Source: Anaerolineae bacterium
GTDB lineage: Bacteria; Chloroflexota; Anaerolineae; B4-G1; SLSP01
Reading direction: 5' to 3'
Assembly (NCBI GenBank): GCA_025454475.1
Contig: JALOOJ010000003.1
Location: 1-60,705, forward strand
Length of the DNA: 60,705 nucleotides
Under the pieces are notes generated by a model. It saw only the letters and a program-made list of their open reading frames with translations. It searched no databases and was not told where the DNA came from. The stretch's first letter is position 1; every line of letters starts with the position of its first letter. Both the position numbers and the translations under genes were made by a program. Shown in pieces: positions 6,001 through 59,524 of the stretch.

Positions 6001-9000
6001 GGTCTGGACGTTGTCGTCATGGAACGCCATTGGCTGAGCGTCCGCGAGGAGTCGGAGGGCGGCTATGCCTATTGGACATGGACGACTGAGGACGTTCCGG
6101 TGTATACCACGACGACGACGACCGATCGGACCGGAAGGGCCTGGATCTCGTTCACGCCCGAGAAGTCCGGCACCTACCGGGTGCGGGCCTCGGGCAAGGA
6201 TAGTGCCGGAAACGAAGTCCGCAGCAGCACCTACCTGTGGGTCTGGGGGGGAGGCGACGTCGTATGGCGACGCGAGAGCACCAACCGCATCGACCTGGTC
6301 GCGGACCGCGATCTCTACCAGATCGGCGATGTAGCCGAGATCCTCATCCCGTCGCCGTACAGCGGAACCGTGCAAGCGCTGATCACGATTGAGCGAGGCC
6401 GCATCCTGAAGACTGAGGTGCGCGAGCTTCAGGGCGCGACCGAGATCCTGCGCATCCCAATCGTCGAGGACTATGCGCCCAATATCTTTGTCTCCGTCAT
6501 CCTGATGCAGGGTTCAGCCCAGACTCCCGAACGCCTGGCGACATTCAAGATGGGCGAGGTGATGTTGCCGGTATCGACCGAGACAAGGGCACTCCAAGTC
6601 AGGCTCACGCCCGACCGCGCGTTGCAGTCCGGCGAGACCTATCGCCCCCGCGGAACGGCCACGTATGACATACGCGTCACCGATAGCGCGGGACGGCCCG
6701 TCGTTGCCGAGCTGTCGTTGCGCCTGGCTGACCTTGCGGTGCTGGCCCTGGCGGATGACACCGGCCCCACTCTGATGGAGCGCTTCTGGAGCCAGCGCGG
6801 TCTCGGGGTACGGACCAGCACACCTCTCGCGGTGGCGATGGAGATCTACAACCGCGAGCTGACGCCGGGTATCAAGGGCGGAGGTGGGGGCGGAGAGGAC
6901 GACCTGGGCTTCGTCCGCACCCGCTTCGCCGACACCGCGTTCTGGGCCGCCGTCGTAAAGACCGACGCCGAAGGACGCGCCCGCGTCGACGTCGACTTGC
7001 CCGACAACCTGACCACCTGGCGCATGCAGGCCCGCGCAATCACGGCGGACACATTGGTGGGTCAGAGTGACGTCGACATCCAGACCACGCTGGACCTGCT
7101 TGTCCGTCCGGTTCTTCCGCGCTTCTTCGTCGTCGGCGACCGGGCCGAGATCGCGACGATCGTGCACAATAACACCGCCAACGCAGCTATGACCGATGTG
7201 TCGATCGCGGTCGAAGGGCTGTCCGTGGATGGAGAGACGCAGCAGAGCGTCAACATTCCCGCCGGCGAGGACGCCAAGGTGACCTGGCCGGTCAAGGCAC
7301 TGGCGGGAGACCACGTGACGGTTCGTATGGAGGCGCGCGCGGGGTCGCTCTTTGACGGCAGGGAGGACTCACTCCCGCTCTACGCTTACGCCACGCCCGA
7401 GAGTATGGCAACGGCGGGCCGGCTCTCCGGGCCCGAGCTGCGACAGGAGGTCGTACAACTGCCCTACGACTTTGACCCCACCCAGGGCGAGCTCACCGTG
7501 CAACTCGACGGCTCGCTCACGGCGGCGGCTCAGGGCGCGCTCGACTACCTTGAGCACTATCCCTATGAATGTGTCGAGCAGACCGTCAGCCGTTTCTTAC
7601 CCAATGTGCTGTCTTACCAGGCACTCGTGGAGATGGGCCTGCCCCGTCCCGAACTACAGCGCAGCCTCACGGCGCAGGTGAGCGTGGCGCTGCAGCGCCT
7701 CTACAACGAGCAGCATTACGATGGCGGTTGGGGCTGGTGGGTCTCAGACACGAGCGATGCCTACCTGACAGCCTATGTGCTGCAAGGGCTGGTGGAGGCC
7801 TACCGCGCCGGATTCACCGTCGACACGGATGTGGTCGACCGCGCCGTTGCCTATCTGCGCGAGGCCCTGCCGTCCATCACACGCGATTCGCCACAGTCCG
7901 AGGCCAACCGGCTCGCCTATGAGCTCTACGTGCTCGGCGAAGCCATCGCCCTCATCCCGAGCGTCGAACCGGCAGGAGAGCTTGGTCGCGCCACGGCGCT
8001 CTTCCGGCAACGCGATCAGCTGGGCTCCTATGGGAAGGCATTGCTTGCCTCAGCCTTCGGACTGCTCGAGCCGCAGGAAGATAGCCGTGTGTCCACTTTG
8101 CTGTCCGATCTTTCTGGAGATGCCGTCCGGAGTGCGACAGGGACCCACTGGGAAGAGGCCGAGCCCGACTACCGGAACATGACCACCGATGTCCGCACGA
8201 CAGCAATCGTCCTGTGGGCGCTGGCGCGTCATATACCCGAGAGCGAAAGCCTGCCCGGCGCTGTCCGCTGGCTGATGGATATGCGGAAAGAGGGTCACTG
8301 GGAGTCGACACATACCACATCGTGGTCACTGGTGGCGCTTGTGGCTTATATGCGCGCGACGGGTGAGCTCCATGGAGAATACGGCTACACAGTATCGCTC
8401 AACGGCGAACAGCTACTATCGGGAGATGTGGACGCGGAGACGATCGACGAGACCCGGCAGGTTCAGGTCGAGATCGCGGACCTGCTTGTAGACCAGGCCA
8501 ACAGACTCATCATCGAGCGCCAGGCGCCCGCGGGGGACCAGACCGGCGAGGGTCAACTGTACTACACGGCTAACCTCCGGTACTTCGTGCCGGTGGAGAC
8601 TGTCCGCGCGATCGATCGTGGCATCGTCGTCGCTCGCCAGTACAGTCTGGTGGATACGCCGGACGCTGCCGTGAGCCAGGCAGCGGTCGGTGACGTGATC
8701 CGCGTCAAAGTTACCGTCATTGCGCCCACCGACCTCTATTATGTGACCGTGGAGGATCCGCTACCCGCCGGGTGCGAGGCCGTGGACGTGACGCTCAACA
8801 CGACCAGTATCGTGGGAGAGGCGCCTATGGTCCAGAACCTCACGGCCCAGGAGGCAGATGTCTGGACTCGATGGTATGGGTGGGGCTGGTGGTGGTTCTC
8901 GCACACCGAGATGCGGGACGAGAAGGTAACTCTCTTCTCCACATACCTGCCGCGCGGGACGTACGAGTACACCTACGTGATGCGCGCGAGTGTTCCCGGC

Positions 9001-9988: not shown

Positions 9989-10013
9989 TAGCGAGCCGCA
10001 GCGCTTGGGGTGG

Positions 10014-11171
10014 TCAGCAGATGCGCGGAAGCTGGGCGCCCGCCAGCATCTGGATGATGCGCCGTGCACCGTAAGGTGTCTCCAGCGTCACACGCCCGCG
10101 GTGAGCCGCCGTCACCGTACCGATGGCTGCCGCGTCTCGCCCAAGCGGGTGTTCGCGCAGGATCGCCAGAGCCCTGTCGGTGCTCGCGCCCTCGACCGCG
10201 ATGACGACCTTGCCCTCATTCGCCGCGTAGAGCGGGTCCAGGCCGAGGAACTCGCACGCCGCCCGAACCTCCTCACGGACCGGGATCTGCGCTTCGATGA
10301 GCTCGATCCCGACCCCCGCGGCCTCAGCCCACTCGTTGAGCACCGTGGCAAGACCCCCACGCGTGGCATCGCGCATCCAATGGACCTGAGTGGGTAGCCC
10401 AGTCAGGAGCGCTTCGATGAGGGCGTTGAGGGGAGCGGTGTCGCTCTCAAGGCTGGATCGAAAGGTGAGCCCTTCCCGCTGGATCATAACCGCCAGCCCG
10501 TGGTCGCCGACGGTGCCGTTGACCAGGAGCGCGTCGCCTGGTTGCAGCCTCTGGGGGCCGAGCTCAAGGCCGGGCGGGATCACCCCAACCCCTGCGGTGT
10601 TGATGAACAGGCCGTCCGCCGCGCCACGACCAACCACCTTGGTGTCACCCGTCACGATCCGCACACCTGCTTCGCGCGCGGTCGTGGCCATACTGACGAC
10701 GATGCGCTCCAGATCCTCGATGGGCAGACCCTCCTCAAGGATAAACCCCGCGGTCAGGTAGAGTGGGCGTGCGCCCATCACAGCGAGATCGTTGACCGTC
10801 CCGCACACAGCCAGCTCGCCTATGTCGCCACCCGGGAAGAAGAGCGGCTGTACGACGTACGAGTCCGTGGTGAGGGCCACCCGGCCTTCTGGCAGCTCGT
10901 CGAGAATCGCGGAGTCGGCCATCTCGTTCAGAAGCGGATTGGCGAACGCACGCACAAAGACATCCTGTATGAGCTCGTGGCTCAGCTCCCCTCCGCTGCC
11001 ATGCGCAAGCAGGACGCGGAGTCGATGTTGGACGCCTGATGTTGGATGTCGGATGCCGGAAGCTGGAAGCCGAGTATCGGCGGCAGCCTGCAAGCTCTCG
11101 ATTACCCCATTCTCCGATTCCTGATTCCCCATTCTCCGATTCGCCTTTTCGCTCATTCGCTCACTCGCCAT
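10014..11171 (-). CDS. hypE: Hydrogenase maturation protein HypE with repeat-derived N-terminal extension (start uncertain: 11171, 11156 or 11132)
   Basis: LAHGSGG, TTDSYVV.PLFFPGGDIG.LAVCGTVNDLA, DATRGG, ANEGK, C-terminal QLPRIC. Confidence 0.95.
   Translation of the reverse strand: MASERMSEKANRRMGNQESENGVIESLQAAADTRLPASGIRHPTSGVQHRLRVLLAHGSGGELSHELIQDVFVRAFANPLLNEMADSAILDELPEGRVALTTDSYVVQPLFFPGGDIGELAVCGTVNDLAVMGARPLYLTAGFILEEGLPIEDLERIVVSMATTAREAGVRIVTGDTKVVGRGAADGLFINTAGVGVIPPGLELGPQRLQPGDALLVNGTVGDHGLAVMIQREGLTFRSSLESDTAPLNALIEALLTGLPTQVHWMRDATRGGLATVLNEWAEAAGVGIELIEAQIPVREEVRAACEFLGLDPLYAANEGKVVIAVEGASTDRALAILREHPLGRDAAAIGTVTAAHRGRVTLETPYGARRIIQMLAGAQLPRIC
11042..11169. repeat. Composite 7/8-mer micro-repeat element in the hypE 5' end
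   Basis: Heptamers TTGGATG TCGGATG CCGGAAG CTGGAAG (11042-11069), then (C/G)ATTC-core 7/8-mers and TTCGCTCA octamers (11105-11169). Confidence 0.85.
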
Positions 11172-12261
11172 ACTTGTAGAACGCAGCACACGCGCCCTCG
11201 GCGCTGACCATACAGGGGCCGATAGGATTACGCGGCGTGCAGACCCGCCGAAAGAGACCGCAGGCGCTCGGGGCGATCACACCGCGCAGCACCTCACCGC
11301 AGCGGCATCCCTTGGGCTCCGCGACCGACGCAACTTCCACGGGAAAGCGCAGCGCGGCATCGCGGTGCGCATAGGCAGTGTTTAGGGTGAGTCCACTGGT
11401 GGGAATCTCACCAAAGCCACGCCACGCAGCCGCACGCACATCGAACACCTGATCGAGCAGGCGCAGGGCCACAGGGTTGCCCCCTGGCTGGACGCTACGA
11501 GCATAGGTATTGAAGACGCCCGGCGCCTTGTCTGCGGCAGCATGGACCAGGGCCGCGATGGCGCTCAGCAGATCCAGCGGCTCGAAGCCGGCGACCGCAC
11601 ACGGGATACCGTAGTCTTCGGGCAGGAAAGCCCAGGCATCGCTGCCGATGACGGCGCTGACGTGCCCAGGGCCGATGATCCCATCGAGCGCGACCTCTCC
11701 CGCATCGAGTATCGCGCGCATCGCCGGAGGCGTGAGCTTGTGCAGGCTGAGTACACTGAAATTCGGGGTTCCTGCCCTCTCCGCCTGTAGCAGGGCGGCG
11801 GCCACCCCCGGAGCCGTCGTCTCAAAGCCCACGCCGAGGAAGATGACCTGCCGGTCGGGATTGGTCTGGGCTAGAGCCAGCGCATCCAGCGGCGAGTAGA
11901 TGACACGAACATCGGCCCCACCGGCGCTCAGCTGCTGGAGAGTTCCACGGCTGCCCGGCACGCGCACCATGTCGCCAAAGGTGGTGAGGATGACATCCGG
12001 TTGCGCGTCCGCAAGCGCCATCGCAACATCCAGATCACGCGATGCCGTCACGCACACTGGGCAACCGGGCCCCGAATGCAGCTCGACATCCCCCGCGAGC
12101 GTCTGGCGCAGGCCAAAGTGGAAGATCGCGTGCGTGTGCCCCCCGCAGAACTCCATCAAGCGCACCGGGCGGATGTCGGGGTGTGCGGCGACCTCGCGCT
12201 TGATCTGAGCGATCAACCGCCGCGCCAATGCCGGGTCGCGGAACTCATCAATGAGCTTCAT
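11161..12261 (-). CDS. hypD: Hydrogenase maturation protein HypD
   Basis: MEFCGGHTH, GPGCPVC, GFETTAP, GPGHVS, GFEP, PIGPCMVSAEGAC. Confidence 0.97.
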   Translation of the reverse strand: MKLIDEFRDPALARRLIAQIKREVAAHPDIRPVRLMEFCGGHTHAIFHFGLRQTLAGDVELHSGPGCPVCVTASRDLDVAMALADAQPDVILTTFGDMVRVPGSRGTLQQLSAGGADVRVIYSPLDALALAQTNPDRQVIFLGVGFETTAPGVAAALLQAERAGTPNFSVLSLHKLTPPAMRAILDAGEVALDGIIGPGHVSAVIGSDAWAFLPEDYGIPCAVAGFEPLDLLSAIAALVHAAADKAPGVFNTYARSVQPGGNPVALRLLDQVFDVRAAAWRGFGEIPTSGLTLNTAYAHRDAALRFPVEVASVAEPKGCRCGEVLRGVIAPSACGLFRRVCTPRNPIGPCMVSAEGACAAFYKYGE

Positions 12262-12548
12262 TCCCGTGGTCGGCTCCCGGATGCCCGCAGTGCGGCCTCC
12301 TCGGCCTCCATAGCTTCCTGGATTCGTGCCAACTCGGCAAAGGCTTCCAGGGACGCCTCAGCTTCCTCAGTATCCATCAACGAGATCGCATAGCCCGTAT
12401 GCACGAGCACATAGTCGCCGACCTTTGCTTCAGGGGTCATGATGAGACTGACTTGCCGGGTGACGCCACCAAGCTCGACGGTCGCCAGGATTCCGATCCC
12501 GCCATCCGGGCTGATCTCGATTATCTGAGTGGGTATCGCTAGACACAT
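12258..12548 (-). CDS. hypC: Hydrogenase chaperone HypC
   Basis: N-terminal MCLAIP; VGDYVLVHTGYAI. Confidence 0.96.
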   Translation of the reverse strand: MCLAIPTQIIEISPDGGIGILATVELGGVTRQVSLIMTPEAKVGDYVLVHTGYAISLMDTEEAEASLEAFAELARIQEAMEAEEAALRASGSRPRE

Positions 12549-12556
12549 AGGAACTC

Positions 12557-15193
12557 CTATCGTGAGTACTCGAACGCGACCATGGCAGCCTGTCCGAGTG
12601 AGATGCCACCGTCATTGGGTGGCACATGGCGATGCGTCAGAACCTCGAAACCGGCGCCGACCAACCGCGGCACCGTGAGGGCAAGGAGGAGCCGGTTCTG
12701 GAACACACCGCCACTCAGAGCAACCGTAGTACTGCCGGTAGTCTCTCGCACGAGACCCGTCACCGACACAACCATATCCGCCACCGTGACGTGGAAACGC
12801 ATGGCAATCTCAGCGGTAGAGACTTCACGCTCCAGATCGTCCAGGATCGCGTCGAAGAGCCGCGCGAGCCGGATCTGAAGCGGGGAAAGGGGAATCACAG
12901 AACCAAGGAATCGAGTATCCGGAATCAGGGGAGAAACGGCGGCATCCACGCTGTAAGGATAGGGCGACAAGCCAGGATCGGCGCGCGTCCAGGCGACCGG
13001 CACCGACTGCTCAAGTTCAATCGCGGCCTGCGCCTCATAGGTCGCCTCGTGGCAGATGCCCAGCAGCGCACTGACCGCGTCAAACAGCCGCCCCATCGAG
13101 GATGTCCTGGGTGTGTTCACCGCGCGGTCGACCATCGTCCGCACGCGCATCACATCGGCGGGGCAGAACTGGCCCAGAGGCAATCGCTCGTCCATCCCTA
13201 ACGCGTGCAGATAGGCTGCGGCGACGCGCCATGGATGATGGATAGCAGCATCGCCGCCGGGCAGCGGCAGGTATTCGAGCTGCGCTACCCGCTGGAAGCC
13301 TGCGTAGCCGCCCACCATCCACTCGCCCCCCCAAATGGCGCCATCGGTCCCGTAGCCCGTGCCGTCCAGCGCTACACCGATCACGGGATCGGAATCCTTA
13401 ACGGGATCGGAATATCCGGGGCGCCCATTGTCCGCAAGACACGCAGCGATGTGGGCTTCGTGGTGCTGAACACGGCGCGGCGCCGGGAGTCCGTGCTCAA
13501 GGGCGAACGCTGTGGCAAGACGCGTGCTCATGTAGTCCGGGTGCAAATCGCAGACGACGTATTCCGGTTCGATGCGGAACAATCGCTGATAGGTCGCGAG
13601 CGCAGCCTCATAGTGCTCAAGCGTTTCCAGATTCTCCAAGTCCCCGATATGCTGGCTCACAAACGCATAGTCATCTCGGAGTAGGGCGAACGTGTTCTTC
13701 AGCAGAGGCCCGACAGCATAAATCTGTGGCCCTTTGAAAGGCAGCCGGATCGGAAAAGGCGCATACCCCCGCGCACGCCGCACGAACTGGATTCTGAAAG
13801 CCGGTTGCTGGGTAACGGACGCAGGCGGCTTGGTCCCGGCACTCGGCTCCTCAGTTCCGCATTCCTGATTCGCTGGTTCTCCGATTCTTGATTCGCTGAG
13901 CTGCACCACCGAGTCGTCGTACCGCGCCTGGATGTCGCGGTTGTGGAGTAGGAATGCGTCTGCCAGCGGCGCGAGGCGGCGGAGCGCCTCATCATTGTCC
14001 TTCGCGATGGGTTCCTCGGAGAGGTTTCCGCTGGTCATGACCAGTGGGCGCCCGACATCGCGGAGAAGGATATGGTGCAGCGGCGTGTAGGGCAGCATCA
14101 CGCCCAGCGTGTCGCTATTGGGCGATACCCCGGTGGCGATCGCAGCATCGGGCCGCGCGTCGAGCAGCACGATGGGGCTCTCAGGTGAGGTCAATAACGC
14201 TTCCGCCTCCGACGGCACGTCACACAGCGCCCTGGCTTCTTCAATCGTGCTAACCATTAGCGCAAACGGCTTCGCCGGGCGCCGCTTGCGCTCCCGCAGC
14301 CGTGCCACCGCCTCAGGATTGGTAGCATCACACGCCAACTGGAACCCACCCAGCCCCTTAACCGCAAGTATCCTGCCGTCCACAAGCAGCGCCGCGGCGC
14401 GGGCGAGCGCATTGTCTCCCAGCTGGATGCTGGATGGTGGATGGTGGATGCTCGATGCCGGAAGCCGGATACCGGCTTCCGGATGCCAGGACCCAGCCTC
14501 TAGCTTCAGATTGCCGGCTTCTGGAGTCTTGATGCTTGATTCTCCGATTCCCGATTCCGCGATTCGTCTGGCCGCTTTTTCGCTTGCTCGCTCACTCGCC
14601 TCCTCCAGCCAGACCTGCGGCCCGCACACAGGGCAGGCATTGGGCTGCGCGTGAAAGCGACGGTTCGCCGGATCCTCGTATTCTGCCTGGCAGTCCGGGC
14701 ACATCGGGAAATCCCGCATCGTGGTGTTGGGCCGGTCGTAGGGGATGTCAGCGATGATCGTGAACCGCGGGCCGCAGTTTGTGCAGTTGGTGAAGGGATA
14801 ACGATACCGCCGATCCGCGGGATCAAGCAACTCTCGCAGGCAGTCGGGGCAGGTGGCGACGTCCGGTGAGATGAGCTGGTAACGCCCCTCCTGGCTCTCC
14901 GAATGGCGGATCTCGAAGCCCACATAGCCTTGAAGATCAATCGGGCGCGCCTCGATCGACTCTATGTGCGAGAGGGGTGGCGCCTTCGCTTGCAGGTCGG
15001 CGATGAAAGTCGCGACCTGCGCCGCCGTCCCCTCCAACTCGATATCGACGCCCCCCGAGTGGTTGAGCACCCAGCCCGAAAGCATCAGCCGGCTCGCCAG
15101 GTTGTAGACAAAGGGCCGGAAACCCACGCCCTGCACGACGCCCGTGACCGCGATGTGCTGGGCGACAGGATCCTGCAAGTGATTGGGTCTCAC
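12557..15193 (-). CDS. hypF: Carbamoyltransferase HypF with several in-frame low-complexity insertions (878 aa)
   Basis: Acylphosphatase GVVQGVGFRPF; Zn fingers CPDC/CTNCGPR/CPDC/CPVCGP; KGLGGFQLACDA; RRARGYAP; QHHEAH; DGTGYG; PPNDGGISLGQ. Confidence 0.97.
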   Translation of the reverse strand: MRPNHLQDPVAQHIAVTGVVQGVGFRPFVYNLASRLMLSGWVLNHSGGVDIELEGTAAQVATFIADLQAKAPPLSHIESIEARPIDLQGYVGFEIRHSESQEGRYQLISPDVATCPDCLRELLDPADRRYRYPFTNCTNCGPRFTIIADIPYDRPNTTMRDFPMCPDCQAEYEDPANRRFHAQPNACPVCGPQVWLEEASERASEKAARRIAESGIGESSIKTPEAGNLKLEAGSWHPEAGIRLPASSIHHPPSSIQLGDNALARAAALLVDGRILAVKGLGGFQLACDATNPEAVARLRERKRRPAKPFALMVSTIEEARALCDVPSEAEALLTSPESPIVLLDARPDAAIATGVSPNSDTLGVMLPYTPLHHILLRDVGRPLVMTSGNLSEEPIAKDNDEALRRLAPLADAFLLHNRDIQARYDDSVVQLSESRIGEPANQECGTEEPSAGTKPPASVTQQPAFRIQFVRRARGYAPFPIRLPFKGPQIYAVGPLLKNTFALLRDDYAFVSQHIGDLENLETLEHYEAALATYQRLFRIEPEYVVCDLHPDYMSTRLATAFALEHGLPAPRRVQHHEAHIAACLADNGRPGYSDPVKDSDPVIGVALDGTGYGTDGAIWGGEWMVGGYAGFQRVAQLEYLPLPGGDAAIHHPWRVAAAYLHALGMDERLPLGQFCPADVMRVRTMVDRAVNTPRTSSMGRLFDAVSALLGICHEATYEAQAAIELEQSVPVAWTRADPGLSPYPYSVDAAVSPLIPDTRFLGSVIPLSPLQIRLARLFDAILDDLEREVSTAEIAMRFHVTVADMVVSVTGLVRETTGSTTVALSGGVFQNRLLLALTVPRLVGAGFEVLTHRHVPPNDGGISLGQAAMVAFEYSR
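12882..12940. repeat. GGAATC-core micro-repeat segment inside hypF (opposite orientation to the other inserts)
   Basis: GGAATC occurs three times within GGGGAATCACAGAACCAAGGAATCGAGTATCCGGAATCAGGGG. Confidence 0.6.
13383..13413. repeat. In-frame tandem duplication (period 18 nt) inside hypF
   Basis: ACGGGATCGGAAT at 13383-13395 and 13401-13413; peptide YSDPVKDSDPVIG. Confidence 0.75.
13855..13900. repeat. GATTC-core micro-repeat array inside hypF
   Basis: ATTCCTGATTCGCTGGTTCTCCGATTCTTGATTCGCTGAG. Confidence 0.75.
14423..14600. repeat. Composite 7/8-mer micro-repeat element inserted in frame in hypF
   Basis: About 9-10 tandem heptamers CTGGATG CTGGATG GTGGATG GTGGATG CTCGATG CCGGAAG CCGGATA CCGGCTT CCGGATG, then GATTC-core repeats, then TTTTCGCTTGCTCGCTCACTCGCC. 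Confidence 0.88.
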
Positions 15194-15861
15194 CCCCGCC
15201 CCAACTTATCCTCCAGCCACGCGATCCAATCCCCTATCCCTTCACCGGTCTTGGCTGAGACAACGATGATAGGGATGGTGGGGTTGAGGCCATGTACCAG
15301 TTCACGGAAGGTGTCGACCTCGAAGTCCAGGTAAGGCAGCAGATCCGACTTGGTCACCACGACCAGGTCGACGGCCTCGAAGATCGCAGGATACTTGTAG
15401 GGTTTGTCATGCCCCTCGGGCACACTGATCAAGCCGACGTTGAAGTCCTGCCCCAGGTCGAAGGAGACCGGACAGATCAAGTTACCGACGTTCTCGACCA
15501 GGACCAAGTCAAGGTCCTCCAAGGGAAGGGCCTGCACTGCATGGCGAATCATAGGCGCGTCGAGATGACAGGCGCCACCAGTGTTGATCTGCACGACTGG
15601 CGTGCCCGTCGTGGCAATCTTGTCGGCGTCGATTTGGGATGCGACATCGCCTTCGATAACGCCGAGCCTGTGCCCGGCTAATGCCGCGATGGTAGCCATG
15701 AGCAGCGTCGTCTTCCCCGCGCCTGGGGAGGCCATAATGTTGAAGACCTTGACGTCATGCGACCTGAACTGCACTCGGTTGTCGGCGGCGACCTCCTCAT
15801 TGGCAGTCAACAACCGCTCGACGACAGGCACACGATTTGAGATGGCTTGGTTGTCTGACAT
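15190..15861 (-). CDS. hypB: Hydrogenase nickel incorporation GTPase HypB
   Basis: ASPGAGKTTL, VIEGD, QINTGGACHLDA, ENVGNLICP, KYP, TKSDL, VSAKTGEG. Confidence 0.96.
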   Translation of the reverse strand: MSDNQAISNRVPVVERLLTANEEVAADNRVQFRSHDVKVFNIMASPGAGKTTLLMATIAALAGHRLGVIEGDVASQIDADKIATTGTPVVQINTGGACHLDAPMIRHAVQALPLEDLDLVLVENVGNLICPVSFDLGQDFNVGLISVPEGHDKPYKYPAIFEAVDLVVVTKSDLLPYLDFEVDTFRELVHGLNPTIPIIVVSAKTGEGIGDWIAWLEDKLGRG

Positions 15862-23046: not shown

Positions 23047-23073
23047 TTCCGATTCGCTGATTCTCAGATTCCC
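23047..23073. repeat. Short GATTC-core micro-repeat copy immediately after the hydB-like stop codon
   Basis: TTCCGATTCGCTGATTCTCAGATTCCC. Confidence 0.7.
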
Positions 23074-44649: not shown

Positions 44650-47562
44650 GTGACGCAAATCCATGGCTTTGAACTGCTGCAGCAGCGGGAAATACCGGAA
44701 CTGAACACCCTGGCGAAGCACTACCGCCACGTCAAGACCGGCGCCGAGGTCCTCTCGCTGGAAAACGTCGACGAGAACAAGGTCTTCGGCATCACTTTCC
44801 GGACGCCCCCGCCCGATTCGACCGGGCTACCGCATATCATGGAGCATTCTGTCCTCTGTGGTTCGCGAAAGTACCCAGTGAAGGAACCCTTTGTAGAACT
44901 GGTCAAAGGATCGCTCAACACGTTCCTCAACGCGTTCACCTTCAGCGACAAGACGTGCTACCCTGTGGCCAGCCAGAACCTGCAGGACTTTTACAACATC
45001 GTCGACGTCTACCTTGATGCGGTCTTCCATCCCCGCTTGACACCCGAAGTCCTGGAACAGGAAGGGTGGCACTACGAGCTGGAGTCCCCTGAGGAGCCGC
45101 TCACGTACAAGGGCGTGGTGTTCAACGAGATGAAAGGTGCGTACGCGTCGCCCGACAATCTCGTGTCGCGGTACAGTGAGCAAGGACTATTCCCTGACAC
45201 GGCGTACGGGCTCGATTCCGGCGGCGATCCCGAGGTGATGCCCAACCTCACACACACGCAGTTCGTTGATTTCCACACTACCTACTACCATCCGTCGAAT
45301 GCGCGCGCGTACTTCTATGGTGATGATGATCCGGAAGAGCGACTACGCATATTGGATGTGTATTTCAGCGAATACGATCGGCAGCCCGTCGATAGCGCTC
45401 TCTCGCTGCAGCCTGCGCGCTCTCAGCCTTGGCGGCTGGTGAAGCCCTACCCTGTTGGCGAAGAGCAGACTCCAAAATCCATGGTGACGGTGACCTGGCT
45501 GCTGCCGGAGAACACCGATCCCACGCTAACCTTGGCGCTGAACATCCTGTCGCATGCATTAGTCGGAACTCCCGCATCTCCGCTGCGCAAGGCCCTGATT
45601 GATTCTGGGCTGGGCGAGGATGTCATAGGAGACGGTGTGGATGACTCCGTCCGGCAGCTGTATTTTTCCGTTGGGCTGAAGGGAGTTGCGTCAGAAAACG
45701 TCGATCGCGTTGAGGCCCTGATCCTTGACACGCTGAATGGCATTGCAGACCAGGGGCTCGATGCGGACACGATTGAGGCCTCGGTCAACACCGTCGAGTT
45801 CCAACTGCGCGAGCAGAACACAGGACACTACCCGCGCGGCCTGTTCGTGATGCTGCAGGCGCTGACCACGTGGCTGCACGACGGCGACCCGTTCGTGTCG
45901 ATTGCCTTTGAGAGGCCGCTGCAGGCAGTGAAGAGCGCACTCAAGGCGGAGTCGCGGCACTTTGAGGGCCTGGTACGCGAGCACCTGCTGCGCAATCAGC
46001 ACAGGCTTACCGTAGTCCTGGAGCCAGATCCTGACCTGCAAGACCGGCAGGACACAGCAGAGAAGGCTCGCCTGGCGGCAGCGAAGGCCTCTATGTCCGA
46101 GCCCGAATTGGCAACCGTCGCGGAGCGAGCGCGTCATCTCAAGAAACTGCAGGAGACGCCCGATTCACCTGAGGCATTGGCGACCATTCCCAACTTGGGC
46201 CTTGCAGACCTGGACAGGGAATCCAAGCACGTGCCCACGGACGTATCTAGCCACCACGAAGTCCAGGTCCTGTATCACGATCTGTTCACGAACGGCATCG
46301 TGTACCTTGACCTGGGCCTCAACCTACGCGCGCTGCCCCAGGAGCTTCTGCCCTATACGGAGCTATTCCTGTCCGCACTGCTAGAAATCGGCACGGAATT
46401 CGAGGACTTCGTCAAGCTCACCCAGCGCATTGGCAGGCAGACCGGCGGCATCTCACCGTCCACTTTCACCTCAACTGTACGTGGTTCCCGCTCAACCGCA
46501 GCTTGGGCGTTCCTACGTAGCAAAGCCCTGGTGGCCCAGGTGCCCGACCTGCTGGCGATCTTGCACGATGTGCTGCTGGCGGTGAAGCTCGACAACCAGC
46601 CCCGCTTCATGCAGATGCTGCTGGAACGCAAGGCGCAAGAGGAAGCGGGCCTGGTCCCCGGAGGCCATCGCGTAGCTGCCTCGCGGCTGCGCGCCAAATT
46701 CGGCGAGTCGCACTGGGTGGCCGAACAGATCGGCGGGGTCTCATATCTCTTCACACTGCGCAAACTCGTCGATGAGGTCGGCACCGATTGGCCTGCAGTT
46801 CTGGAGAAGCTCGAACTCGTTCGGAGCTTGCTGATAAACCGCACCACCATGCTCTGCAATGTCACGGTGGATGCGGAGGCCTGGGCTGGGATCGAGCCCC
46901 AACTGGACGCGTTCCTGGGATCGCTCCCCAATGGCGACATCTCGGTGGCGACGTGGACGCCCACATATAACTTGGCGCCCGAGGGGCTGACGCTGCCCGC
47001 AAACGTGAACTACGTCAGCAAGGGCGCCAACCTATTTGACCTGGGATACAAGCGCCACGGATCAGCCGAGGTCATCTCCCACTATCTCCGCAGCACCTGG
47101 TTGTGGGAGCGCGTAAGGGTGCAGGGCGGCGCCTACGGTGGGTTCTGCATCTTCGACTCACATTCCGGCACCTTTGGCTACGTATCATATCGCGACCCCA
47201 ACCTACAGCAGACGCTTGACATCTATGACCAAACTGCAGCGTTCTTGGAGACCCTGGTTCTTCCCCGAGAGGAGCTTGTCAAGGGCATCATTGGATCCAT
47301 CGGGAATATCGATGCCTATCAGCTCCCTGATGCAAAGGGGTTCAGCGCCATGGCTCGGGTCCTAATCGGGTACACCGACGAGGCCCGGCAGCAGTACCGC
47401 ACCGAGCTACTCAACACCACCACGGAGGACTTCAGGGCTTTCGCAGCGGTCGCGAGACGTGTAGCTGAGTTCGGCAGCGTGGTCGTGGTTGGATCGCCCG
47501 CTGCGATCCAGGCGGCAGAGGAGTCGCGCGGCATAGGCTTTGAGATTACCAAGCTGATGTAA
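44650..47562 (+). CDS. M16C metallopeptidase (presequence protease PreP-like)
   Basis: GLPHIMEHSVLCGS (HxxEH), KGSLNTFLNAFT, KGVVFNEMKG, WERVRVQGGAYGG, SYRDPN. Confidence 0.95.
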   Translation: MTQIHGFELLQQREIPELNTLAKHYRHVKTGAEVLSLENVDENKVFGITFRTPPPDSTGLPHIMEHSVLCGSRKYPVKEPFVELVKGSLNTFLNAFTFSDKTCYPVASQNLQDFYNIVDVYLDAVFHPRLTPEVLEQEGWHYELESPEEPLTYKGVVFNEMKGAYASPDNLVSRYSEQGLFPDTAYGLDSGGDPEVMPNLTHTQFVDFHTTYYHPSNARAYFYGDDDPEERLRILDVYFSEYDRQPVDSALSLQPARSQPWRLVKPYPVGEEQTPKSMVTVTWLLPENTDPTLTLALNILSHALVGTPASPLRKALIDSGLGEDVIGDGVDDSVRQLYFSVGLKGVASENVDRVEALILDTLNGIADQGLDADTIEASVNTVEFQLREQNTGHYPRGLFVMLQALTTWLHDGDPFVSIAFERPLQAVKSALKAESRHFEGLVREHLLRNQHRLTVVLEPDPDLQDRQDTAEKARLAAAKASMSEPELATVAERARHLKKLQETPDSPEALATIPNLGLADLDRESKHVPTDVSSHHEVQVLYHDLFTNGIVYLDLGLNLRALPQELLPYTELFLSALLEIGTEFEDFVKLTQRIGRQTGGISPSTFTSTVRGSRSTAAWAFLRSKALVAQVPDLLAILHDVLLAVKLDNQPRFMQMLLERKAQEEAGLVPGGHRVAASRLRAKFGESHWVAEQIGGVSYLFTLRKLVDEVGTDWPAVLEKLELVRSLLINRTTMLCNVTVDAEAWAGIEPQLDAFLGSLPNGDISVATWTPTYNLAPEGLTLPANVNYVSKGANLFDLGYKRHGSAEVISHYLRSTWLWERVRVQGGAYGGFCIFDSHSGTFGYVSYRDPNLQQTLDIYDQTAAFLETLVLPREELVKGIIGSIGNIDAYQLPDAKGFSAMARVLIGYTDEARQQYRTELLNTTTEDFRAFAAVARRVAEFGSVVVVGSPAAIQAAEESRGIGFEITKLM

Positions 47563-58501: not shown

Positions 58502-59506
58502 TCCAACGTCACAGCCCGTGTTGGCGATCACAATGGGCGATCCCGCGGGGATAGGCCCGGAAATCGTGCTGAAAGCGCTGGCCCGCAAGGACGTGGTCCG
58601 CCGCTGTCACTTCTTGGTGGTCGGCGACCGGCGCATCCTGGAGCGCGCTATGAGATGGGAAAGTGTGCCTCATGTCGACATGAGGACAGTCACAGACCCT
58701 CTGCAAAGCATCGGCTCGCCGGTGCCCGTGGAAGGCCAGATCGACCTGCTGGACTTGGGCAATGCAGACCCCGATCTCTGTGAAGTCGGAGCGGTGAGTG
58801 CGCCAAGCGGACGCGCAGCGGTCGAGTACGTCCAGCGCGCGTGCGACCTCTGCCTAGAAAGCTACGCCGCAGCGATGGTCACGGCCCCTCTCAACAAGGA
58901 CGCGATGAATCAGGCCGGCTACACCTATGCCGGGCATACGGAACTGCTGGCTGAACGAACCGGCGCGACGAAGGTCAGTATGCTCCTGGTCGGTCCGGGT
59001 CTGCGCGTTGTGCACGTCAGCACACACGTCGCCCTGGAAGATGCTGTCCGGCGCGTAAGGCAGGACCGCGTGGCCGAGGTGATCGACCTGGCTTACCGTG
59101 GCTGCAGGGCGCTGGGCATCGCCGCGCCAAGAATAGGCGTCGCCGGGCTTAAGGGCTCTTCGGCGACCAAGAATCGCGTGAGATCATGCCTGCGGTGATC
59201 GCCGCACGGGCCCGTGGACTCGATGTCTCCGATCCACAGCCGCCCGACACTGTGTTTCTGAGAGCCACGCGAGGCGCCTATGACATCATCGTCGCGATGT
59301 ACCACGACCAAGGGCACATCCCGATGAAACTCCTGGCCTTTGACGAGGGCGTGAATGTCAGCCTTGGCCTGCCGATTATCCGCACGTCGGTAGACCATGG
59401 CACTGCCTTTGACATCGCCGGGACTGGACAGGCGCGCGAGACCAGCCTCATAGCGGCCATTGACGTGGCATTGCAGATGGTCGCAGCAAGGCGGGAAGGC
59501 CAGTGA
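58494..59506 (+). pseudogene. pdxA: PdxA-family dehydrogenase (PdxA2-like) split by a frameshifting deletion at about 59152
   Basis: ITMGDPAGIGPE, TAPLNK, GHTELLA, then VAGL with no NPHAGE; shifted frame resumes [50 protein letters not shown]. Confidence 0.85.
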
Positions 59507-59524
59507 GCGAATAGGCGAGTTAGG
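59502..59524. repeat. Short octamer micro-repeat copy beginning at the pdxA stop codon
   Basis: AGTGAGCGAATAGGCGAGTTAGG; same motif family as the hypD-hypE junction sense strand GAGTGAGCGAATGAGCGAA. Confidence 0.5.

Follow-up and report, generated by a model that had tools for sequence, protein, structure and literature searches.

The stretch of Anaerolineae DNA described here (60,705 nt, contig JALOOJ010000003.1 of assembly GCA_025454475.1, hereafter the window) corresponds to contig C141 in a genome of 4.8 Mb, 369 contigs and 63% G+C. On its minus strand the genes hypF, hypC and hypD and the open frame of hypE lie head to tail. The subject of this account is a block of imperfect 7- and 8-nt tandem units that occupies hypF in frame, together with a look-alike in the spacer between hypD and hypE. 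The Pfam matches of the host protein are Acylphosphatase (residues 13-95), zf-HYPF (to residue 196), Sua5_yciO_yrdC (269-435), HypF_C (488-588) and HypF_C_2 (606-868), and it matches the solved HypF 3VTH at 1.8e-192. The acylphosphatase domain, two zinc fingers, and the YrdC-like and Kae1-like domains follow one another in order, as judged by Pfam and by the solved structures 3VTH, 4G9I and 3TSP. Coordinates of all features are collected in Table 1; unit counts are those of the metagenome-assembled genome as assembled.

The array between the zinc-finger and YrdC-like domains, module 1, has four parts. Three GCGAnnnn octamers come first, then four units with a GAATC core, a non-repetitive spacer, and nine heptamers in register (in order GGCATCC, GGAAGCC, GGTATCC, GGCTTCC, GGCATCG, AGCATCC, ACCATCC, ACCATCC, AGCATCC). 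Tandem Repeats Finder (TRF) reports a period of 7 with 9.0 copies at 14425-14487 and a period of 7/8 with 3.7 copies at 14538-14565. An earlier account made from the letters alone (the sequence-only reading) had described tandem heptamers, GATTC-core 7/8-mers and octamers in hypF, and both TRF and the sequence place them where it had put them. Its 9-bp perfect hairpin at 14460-14480 is also present, in fact as part of a longer stem of 11 bp, which exists because the unit GGAAGCC precedes, one unit apart, its own reverse complement GGCTTCC. In the module at most two identical units are neighbors (CATCCAC twice). Three 7-nt units make seven codons and three 8-nt units make eight, so any reading frame gives an identical cyclic peptide.

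The insert is long for a HypF. The same account had counted 84 residues from CPVCGP to AVKGLGG, which is exact (252 nt), and had put the excess over a typical HypF at roughly 50 residues; the excess is about 55, both from same-genus orthologs with 30 residues there and from the gap against 3VTH. Alignment with 3VTH gives three blocks (11-194, 263-432 and 461-871). At the first break the solved protein has 11 residues where the window HypF has 68, and at the second it has none. The two inserts, about 57 and about 30 residues, fall exactly at domain junctions in this alignment, and the Pfam borders agree. In an AlphaFold2 model built with 42 sequences, the per-residue confidence score pLDDT (predicted local distance difference test) is below 50 at 214-254 and 437-463, and the only ordered element predicted for module 1 is a short helix at 201-213, where the peptide derives from the octamers. 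As modeled, module 1 is a mostly disordered interdomain linker of roughly 59 residues. A search of 5.8 billion proteins with the insert peptide (residues 196-262) returned only the protein itself and no relative.

Table 1. Features of the hyp region and further arrays of the same family in the window
Feature	Position	Strand	Description
hypF (carbamoyltransferase HypF)	12557..15193	-	uninterrupted open reading frame, 878 aa (open reading frame list, translation)
in-frame micro-repeat module 1	14423..14599	-	177 nt, residues A199-Q257, between zinc-finger and YrdC-like domains
module 1 octamer block U1	14573..14599	-	GCGAGTGA GCGAGCAA GCGAAAAA GCG; peptide ASERASEKA; one of the genome's 22 such arrays
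module 1 7/8-mer block U2	14535..14565	-	four GAATC-core units: GAATCGCG GAATCGG GAATCGGA GAATCAAG
module 1 spacer	14488..14534	-	47 nt, non-repetitive; belongs to the 99 nt absent from closest relative L046
module 1 heptamer block U3	14423..14487	-	nine units in register; peptide ...RLPASSIHHPPSSIQ; TRF period 7 x 9
11-bp hairpin	14458..14482		CCGGAAGCCGG-ATA-CCGGCTTCCGG; only strong helix in the module's RNA fold
hypF in-frame module 2	13796..13897	-	residues about 433-466, YrdC-like/Kae1-like junction; from TRF, 3VTH gap and orthologs
weak third in-frame hypF array	12882..12940	-	GATTC units; peptide SPLIPDTRFLGSVIPLSP; variable loop of the Kae1-like domain, unaligned to 3VTH
hypD	11161..12261	-	366 aa; TGA stop (11161-11163) inside first octamer unit GCGAGTGA
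hypD-hypE micro-repeat module	11021..11168	-	U1 11141-11168, U2 11098-11140, spacer 11070-11097, U3 11021-11069
hypE open frame	10014..11189	-	391 codons; conserved HypE core from near residue 57 (about 11021)
further same-family array	23048..23071	-	GAATCTGA GAATCA GCGAATCG, directly after a TAATAA stop
further short array	59501..59524	+	GCGAATAG GCGAGTTA, begins at a TGA stop

Variation among orthologs was examined at two sites, site 1, flanked by the last zinc finger and the YrdC-like domain, and site 2, flanked by DDSVV and RRARGYAP, in 19 relatives taken from whole genomes and 41 database homologs. The length of site 1 ranges from 30 to 110 residues in the first set and from 29 to 110 in the second, and site 2 varies much as site 1 does. 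Empty sites of the kind that the sequence-only reading had asked to have looked for do occur: in two orthologs of the same genus (G008 and G017) site 1 is down to 30 residues, and the insert is lineage-specific. Arrays of the same kinds are found at both sites in many lineages, with peptides such as ASERASEKASKR, ESRITNHE and SIQHPASS, and in several of these lineages the order, purine-rich units and then C-rich units, is kept at both junctions. The taxa that bear arrays are scattered over a tree made from the conserved parts of HypF and do not form one clade. In one member of the genus site 1 has a different make-up: in L012 (genome G001) and in P0023 it consists of four tandem 66-nt (22-residue) units, SETALKRLL(R/Q)TGDLSSGVEE.

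The three closest loci show how the length changes. Site 1 measures 252 nt in the window, 153 in L046 (ENA) and 108 in L047 (NCBI), and all three share the left edge of module 1, EE-A[SN]ER.SEKA.KR. A segment of 99 nt in the window has no counterpart in L046; the near-repeat GAATC[A/G]AGCATC[A/C]A stands on both sides of it, which fits deletion or duplication between repeat units. Module 2, at the second junction, opens with a GCGAATCA/GAATC array (13861-13899) and has a decayed C-rich half. At that site L046 and L047 have a complete two-part module where the window copy is decayed, the reverse of site 1. Such rapid change of length and unit between close relatives, seen at both HypF sites and in the hypD-hypE spacer, is characteristic of long simple sequence repeats (SSRs) and of the short tandemly repeated repetitive (STRR) sequences of cyanobacteria, which are heptamer repeats.

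The third hypF array is oriented opposite to the other two. The idea that all in-frame arrays are sense-oriented was rejected on this account. Antisense GAATCA units would put TGA in all frames, and part of any orientation bias is therefore stop avoidance.

In none of the 19 and 41 orthologs is the reading frame closed at either site. This bears on the possibility that the array is a phase-variation switch, in which gain or loss of one unit would shift the hypF frame and turn [NiFe]-hydrogenase maturation off and on, in the manner of the neuO heptanucleotides of E. coli K1. Because units of 7 and 8 nt do not divide by three, a change by any one unit shifts the frame, and at the array's early position in the gene this would remove both catalytic domains. 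However, units as imperfect as these, with at most two identical neighbors, suppress slippage, and a long tract of identical units is not found; the same arrays lie mostly outside genes, and the sole broken site, in G006, is a gap of Ns. A switch of this kind is highly improbable.

The gap of Ns is of interest for another reason. At hypF site 1 of G006 (contig C90, L043) the scaffold gap, with duplicated flanks, lies inside an octamer array. Several relatives had HypF matched in pieces, and a split HypF was considered for them; the one inspected was this case, with no real split. Arrays of this kind therefore interrupt assembly from short reads and can make an intact gene look split. That they do break assemblies at the same hypF site speaks for an artefact of metagenome assembly in the window as well, but independent ENA, NCBI and JGI assemblies carry arrays of the same families at both HypF sites and in the hypD-hypE spacer, and in hypF these are always in frame. 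The chance that the arrays are an assembly artefact is close to negligible.

All three block types of module 1 recur, in unchanged order, in the hypD-hypE module. TRF finds a period of 8 with 2.6 copies at 11148-11168 and periods of 7 and 22 nt at 11024-11142. The sequence-only reading had seen in this likeness a homologous non-autonomous element copied into the partner gene, and its key comparison, 21 of 24 nt between 14577-14600 and 11146-11169, is exactly right. It had placed the second copy at the 5' end of hypE; the block order stands, but the copy is in the hypD-hypE spacer, upstream of the conserved HypE N-terminus. The similar peptides read in the same frame from both copies are likewise real, but follow automatically from 7- and 8-nt units and add no further evidence.

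Several observations bear on whether the two copies are one element. Compared in a register fixed on the octamer, the octamer block of the hypD-hypE module resembles an array of contig C197 (0.96, 27 of 28) more than it does that of hypF (0.85, rank 6 of 21). Among the 22 octamer arrays of the genome two pairs share a run of two units, against 1.8 expected if the units were permuted at random (p = 0.53, a comparison of low power), and no pair has a three-unit run in common. When the two modules are aligned, identity is confined to the unit cores, with no conserved ends and no target-site duplication. A discrete mobile element in the manner of a miniature inverted-repeat transposable element (MITE), a repetitive extragenic palindromic (REP) sequence or a Rickettsia palindromic element would have a consensus with defined or inverted ends; no such consensus was found, and the ortholog copies differ by internal insertions and deletions. 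Nor were target-site duplications with clean empty sites found: G008 and G017 do have empty sites, but the flanks lack duplication and intermediate lengths are common. For whole-module RNA folds z was -2.4 in hypF, where a single local hairpin accounts for it, and +2.5 in the hypD-hypE copy, with no overall palindrome, and on these values a REP-like long hairpin was rejected. No Rfam match was found in 10000-15500 at an E of 1 or less.

A Rickettsia palindromic element is a discrete unit of about 100-150 bp whose copies follow a conserved palindromic consensus. As with those elements, an extra peptide is here added in frame at a tolerant surface site, and the sequence is also found between genes. 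Unlike them, the present arrays have no consensus beyond the 7- and 8-nt units, no overall palindrome, and ortholog lengths that are graded. Separate insertions of such an element in hypF and before hypE would account for the common block order and for the 21 of 24 nt, and two Y1-transposase genes (Y1_Tnp matches) in the genome could be thought of as its mobilizer. Transposases of this type also occur in 6 of 14 control genomes, hence their presence is uninformative. With no fixed termini, other loci that match each copy equally well or better, unit order at the level of chance, and ortholog sites that differ by degrees of length and not by presence or absence of a fixed unit, a mobile element is very unlikely. 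The claim of an element copied between hypF and its partner is not supported by these comparisons or by the spacer location of the second copy. The other possibility offered by the sequence-only reading, a repeat-expansion process that adds unstructured peptide to proteins, agrees with the empty ortholog sites, the genome-wide units and the modeled disorder. Judged by their sequences, the hypF and hypD-hypE arrays are independent members of the same family and not copies of one element. There is no copy-specific similarity, and the functional partnership of HypE and HypF is therefore coincidental to the repeats.

The open frame of hypE runs through the whole spacer module, and several starts are possible (ATG at 11169-11171, 11154-11156 and 11130-11132, TTG at 11091-11093). 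In the window genome no in-frame ATG, GTG or TTG occurs between the last of these and the conserved HypE N-terminus (LLAHGSGG). At least the C-rich block (LPASGIRHPTSGVQH) must therefore be translated, barring a rare start codon. The in-frame ATG at 11169-11171 overlaps the last codons of hypD. In the two closest relatives, gene callers place the hypE start at the ATG that overlaps the hypD stop; in these relatives, too, the codon that immediately precedes LLAHG is GTG, and its counterpart in the window is GTC. In G002 and G012 stops close the hypE frame further upstream, and an ATG stands right before the CATCC array. Across 22 relatives, the match to HypE sets in at about residues 55-58 of the open frame seen in the window. 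Arrays thus supply the stop codon of hypD and probably start codons and N-terminal residues of hypE.

The spacer itself differs greatly between genomes. From the hypD stop to the LAHGSGG motif there are 14-25 nt in four genomes of the same genus (G010, G014, G007, G029) and 30 nt in G005, against 150-223 nt, filled by arrays, in the window genome (G000) and in G011, G002, G012 and G006. In other families of the order (L042, L039 and L040) the spacer holds unrelated units, GCAAGTGG ten times, GTGAAAC/GTCAAAC, and GTTGCAG three times. The hypD-hypE spacer is a hot spot whatever the unit. In G006 (L028) the 223-nt spacer is a near-perfect inverted pair of arrays, with GAATG, GAATC and GCGAnnnn units followed by TCGCnnnn, CATTC and CTTCC units; such a pair would form a long hairpin. 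Two loci of the window genome, C310:1835-1906 and C112:508-550, resemble it. The polar purine-rich/C-rich pair may start as an inverted duplication that later diverges, because in the G006 spacer, C310 and C112 the second half exactly inverts the first.

The units of hypF and the spacer are found throughout the genome. A census with strict regular expressions, requiring at least three consecutive units, detected 22 GCGAN4, 22 GAAT[CG], three C[AT]TCC and one GAAGC arrays, 48 matches that merge into 38 loci on about 30 contigs. The same patterns gave no arrays in the shuffled genome. As in long SSRs and STRR sequences, the arrays are head to tail and above chance, and the unit families are dispersed over unrelated loci. 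Placement was assessed by crude scoring of open reading frames (ORFs) and by inspection. About 20 of 39 purine-rich arrays overlap the stop codon that ends an ORF on the same strand or start within about 20 nt past it. A further eight or so are found immediately upstream of a divergently oriented start, where they occupy its non-coding strand. Few arrays are internal to a gene and in frame; they comprise the three in hypF, one that lies in a loop of a CbiQ-like protein (C308), and those that form the C-terminal tails of three proteins (on C219, C256 and C161).

Other features of the arrays can be mentioned here. In the C308 case (45162-45188) the protein is a CbiQ/EcfT-like membrane protein, with the octamer array (peptide ASDESGEQASKRNGG) between predicted membrane segments. 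Three consecutive GCGAATGA units carry TGA in all three frames (e.g., C254:1221-1241 and C108:2763-2798). An array of this type after a stop would therefore halt ribosomes that have read through or shifted frame, which may be a side effect. CCCCAGT heptamers, which we take to be the classic STRR unit of heterocystous cyanobacteria, also form arrays in the same genome, four by TRF (e.g., on contig C256 at about 8020-8060).

Arrays of GCGAN4 with at least 3.5 copies are present in 79 of 301 sampled Anaerolineae genomes, representing 56 of 176 genera, and range from none to several hundred per genome. A reversed-pattern control for this count is not independent, as AGCG-N4 arrays match it, and was not used. 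Elsewhere in Anaerolineae the octamer units are mostly GCGAATCA, GCGAGTCA, GCGATTCA and GCGACTCA, i.e., GCGANTCA, each with a GANTC site. GANTC is the target of methyltransferases of the HinfI and CcrM type. In the window genome it is neither avoided nor enriched (0.86-1.01 of expectation genome-wide). A scan for three GCGARTSA units in one genome per prokaryote species gave at least 80 loci; among the 80 matches listed, 52 are Chloroflexota, with Burkholderia, Acidobacteriaceae, Phycisphaerales, Streptomyces and a Stigonema in the remainder. In the collection of papers that was searched, no description of such arrays in Chloroflexota or Anaerolineae was found.

The nearest known systems are the heptamer repeats of Xanthomonas (GGGAATC) and Nostoc (GGGGA(C/T)T). 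Those repeats lie on the coding strand when downstream of a stop, stop overlap included, and on the non-coding strand when upstream of a start (Rehm et al. 2015, PMC4692102), a rule that about 28 of the 39 arrays here follow. The likeness extends to the dispersed 7-nt arrays, the GAATC core, the mostly intergenic position, the differences in length and sequence between close relatives, and the minority of arrays inside genes (PMC4692102). In contrast to those heptamers, 8-nt GCGAnnnn units are here equally common, polar purine-rich/C-rich pairs are frequent, the units are not rich in G tracts, so that quadruplexes are not expected, and the host belongs to Anaerolineae. For long SSRs with units of 5-11 nt, slippage has been proposed and a scattered phylogeny noted, at least as that survey is reported by a later paper (Mrazek et al. 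2007, via PMC4679880). An excess of 7-nt arrays in some high-GC or large genomes appears, from what is reported of that survey and of cyanobacterial STRR sequences, to be a point in common with the present case. According to the same second-hand report, in-gene repeats mostly have units divisible by three, unlike the 7- and 8-nt units found in frame here, where only total length is constrained.

Two further systems share some of these traits. The TAACTGA repeats of marine Beggiatoaceae are heptamer arrays, mostly intergenic and near start codons, and 13 of 25 gene-overlapping sets overlap the stop of the upstream gene, as at hypD (MacGregor 2015, PMC4679880). They differ in having one unit family, which mostly sits upstream of starts, and in-frame linker arrays that persist are not reported for them (PMC4679880). 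The tandem repeats of Borgs are fast-evolving, intergenic or translated into disordered segments, and can begin at the end of an ORF; those within ORFs are perfect repeats whose unit length is a multiple of three (Schoelmerich et al. 2023, PMC9879509). The imperfect 7- and 8-mers here are unlike them in this respect and do not belong to the Borg type. Compared with all of these, the arrays described here appear to be simple sequence repeats of the Xanthomonas and Nostoc kind, and what is new is the lineage, the octamer units, the polar pair and the persistence in HypF linkers.

The hypF insert is best explained, with a probability of about 0.75, as a local case of a lineage-wide proliferation of 7- and 8-nt simple sequence repeats that is tolerated as a disordered linker. 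The unit families are GCGAnnnn, GAATCnn and C(A/T)TCCnn. Arrays would originate and turn over by replication slippage together with deletion and duplication between near-identical units, and selection would spare them only where they are harmless, after stops, upstream of starts, in spacers between cistrons and in tolerant protein linkers. Within proteins an array would be kept if its total length is a multiple of three and it contains no in-frame stop. The hypF array at the zinc-finger/YrdC-like junction would be translated, and its peptide would be neutral; a second, partly decayed array lies at the YrdC-like/Kae1-like junction. The similar module 3.3 kb further downstream is the hypD-hypE spacer, of which at least the C-rich half must, in this genome, become an N-terminal extension of HypE.

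Some observations weigh against this explanation. The density of C[AT]T[CT]C is 8.6/kb downstream of purine-rich arrays, compared with 3.2 upstream and 4.2 in the background, and at least two such motifs lie downstream at ten loci and upstream at one. The sequence of purine-rich 8/7-mers, spacer and C-rich heptamers is repeated at both HypF junctions and in cistron spacers, and this polarity counts against it because plain slippage does not predict polarity. The closest relatives differ by large insertions and deletions and not by single-unit steps. Finally, identical unit cores turn up in families that are far apart and even in different phyla. This may point to a cause that depends on the sequence, be it a bias of mutation or selection for a motif that is bound.

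Part of the same evidence can be read as a sign that the polar two-part module is a selected RNA or DNA signal at junctions, with the hypF copies persisting by function, e.g., by pacing translation between domains. In such a signal the purine-rich array would follow a stop or the close of a domain, and the C-rich array would precede a start or the following domain. The module might serve as a platform on which ribosomal protein S1 or another RNA-binding protein, Rho, or a methyltransferase of the GANTC type could act. Besides the one-sided C-rich motifs, the tie of array placement to stops and starts, the comparable modules at both HypF junctions in many Anaerolineae lineages (54-84% identity) and the GANTC site in the prevalent GCGANTCA units of other genomes are consistent with a signal, and binding of a regulator was proposed by MacGregor for the TAACTGA repeats (PMC4679880). 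Against it stand the hypervariability of the modules even among the closest relatives, the empty sites that genomes of the same genus have in the hypD-hypE spacer as well as at each hypF junction, RNA folds that give no consistent structure, the lack of an Rfam match, and GANTC words that show no genome-wide bias. A selected signal is an unlikely explanation of the hypF copies.

A related suggestion is that, in Anaerolineae, a transcription-oriented and unit-specific process, or selection, installs the polar module at cistron boundaries and treats the two domain junctions of hypF as if they were such boundaries, so that the module is no passive by-product. This we consider rather improbable. 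If it were true, the module would act on the mRNA, e.g., as a landing or pausing platform that separates the translation of successive cistrons or domains, and the GANTC-bearing units might also mark DNA.

The build-up of 7-nt arrays in bacteria, here joined by 8-nt arrays, with the same units at many loci, has been unexplained since it was first described. The HypF locus provides a natural series in which to follow it, since two linker sites and a neighboring spacer go from empty to short to long across close genomes. For the annotation of metagenome-assembled genomes, such arrays make ORFs too long, displace the predicted starts and interrupt assemblies. The locus also shows that units not divisible by three can persist in an essential maturation gene if only their total length is constrained.

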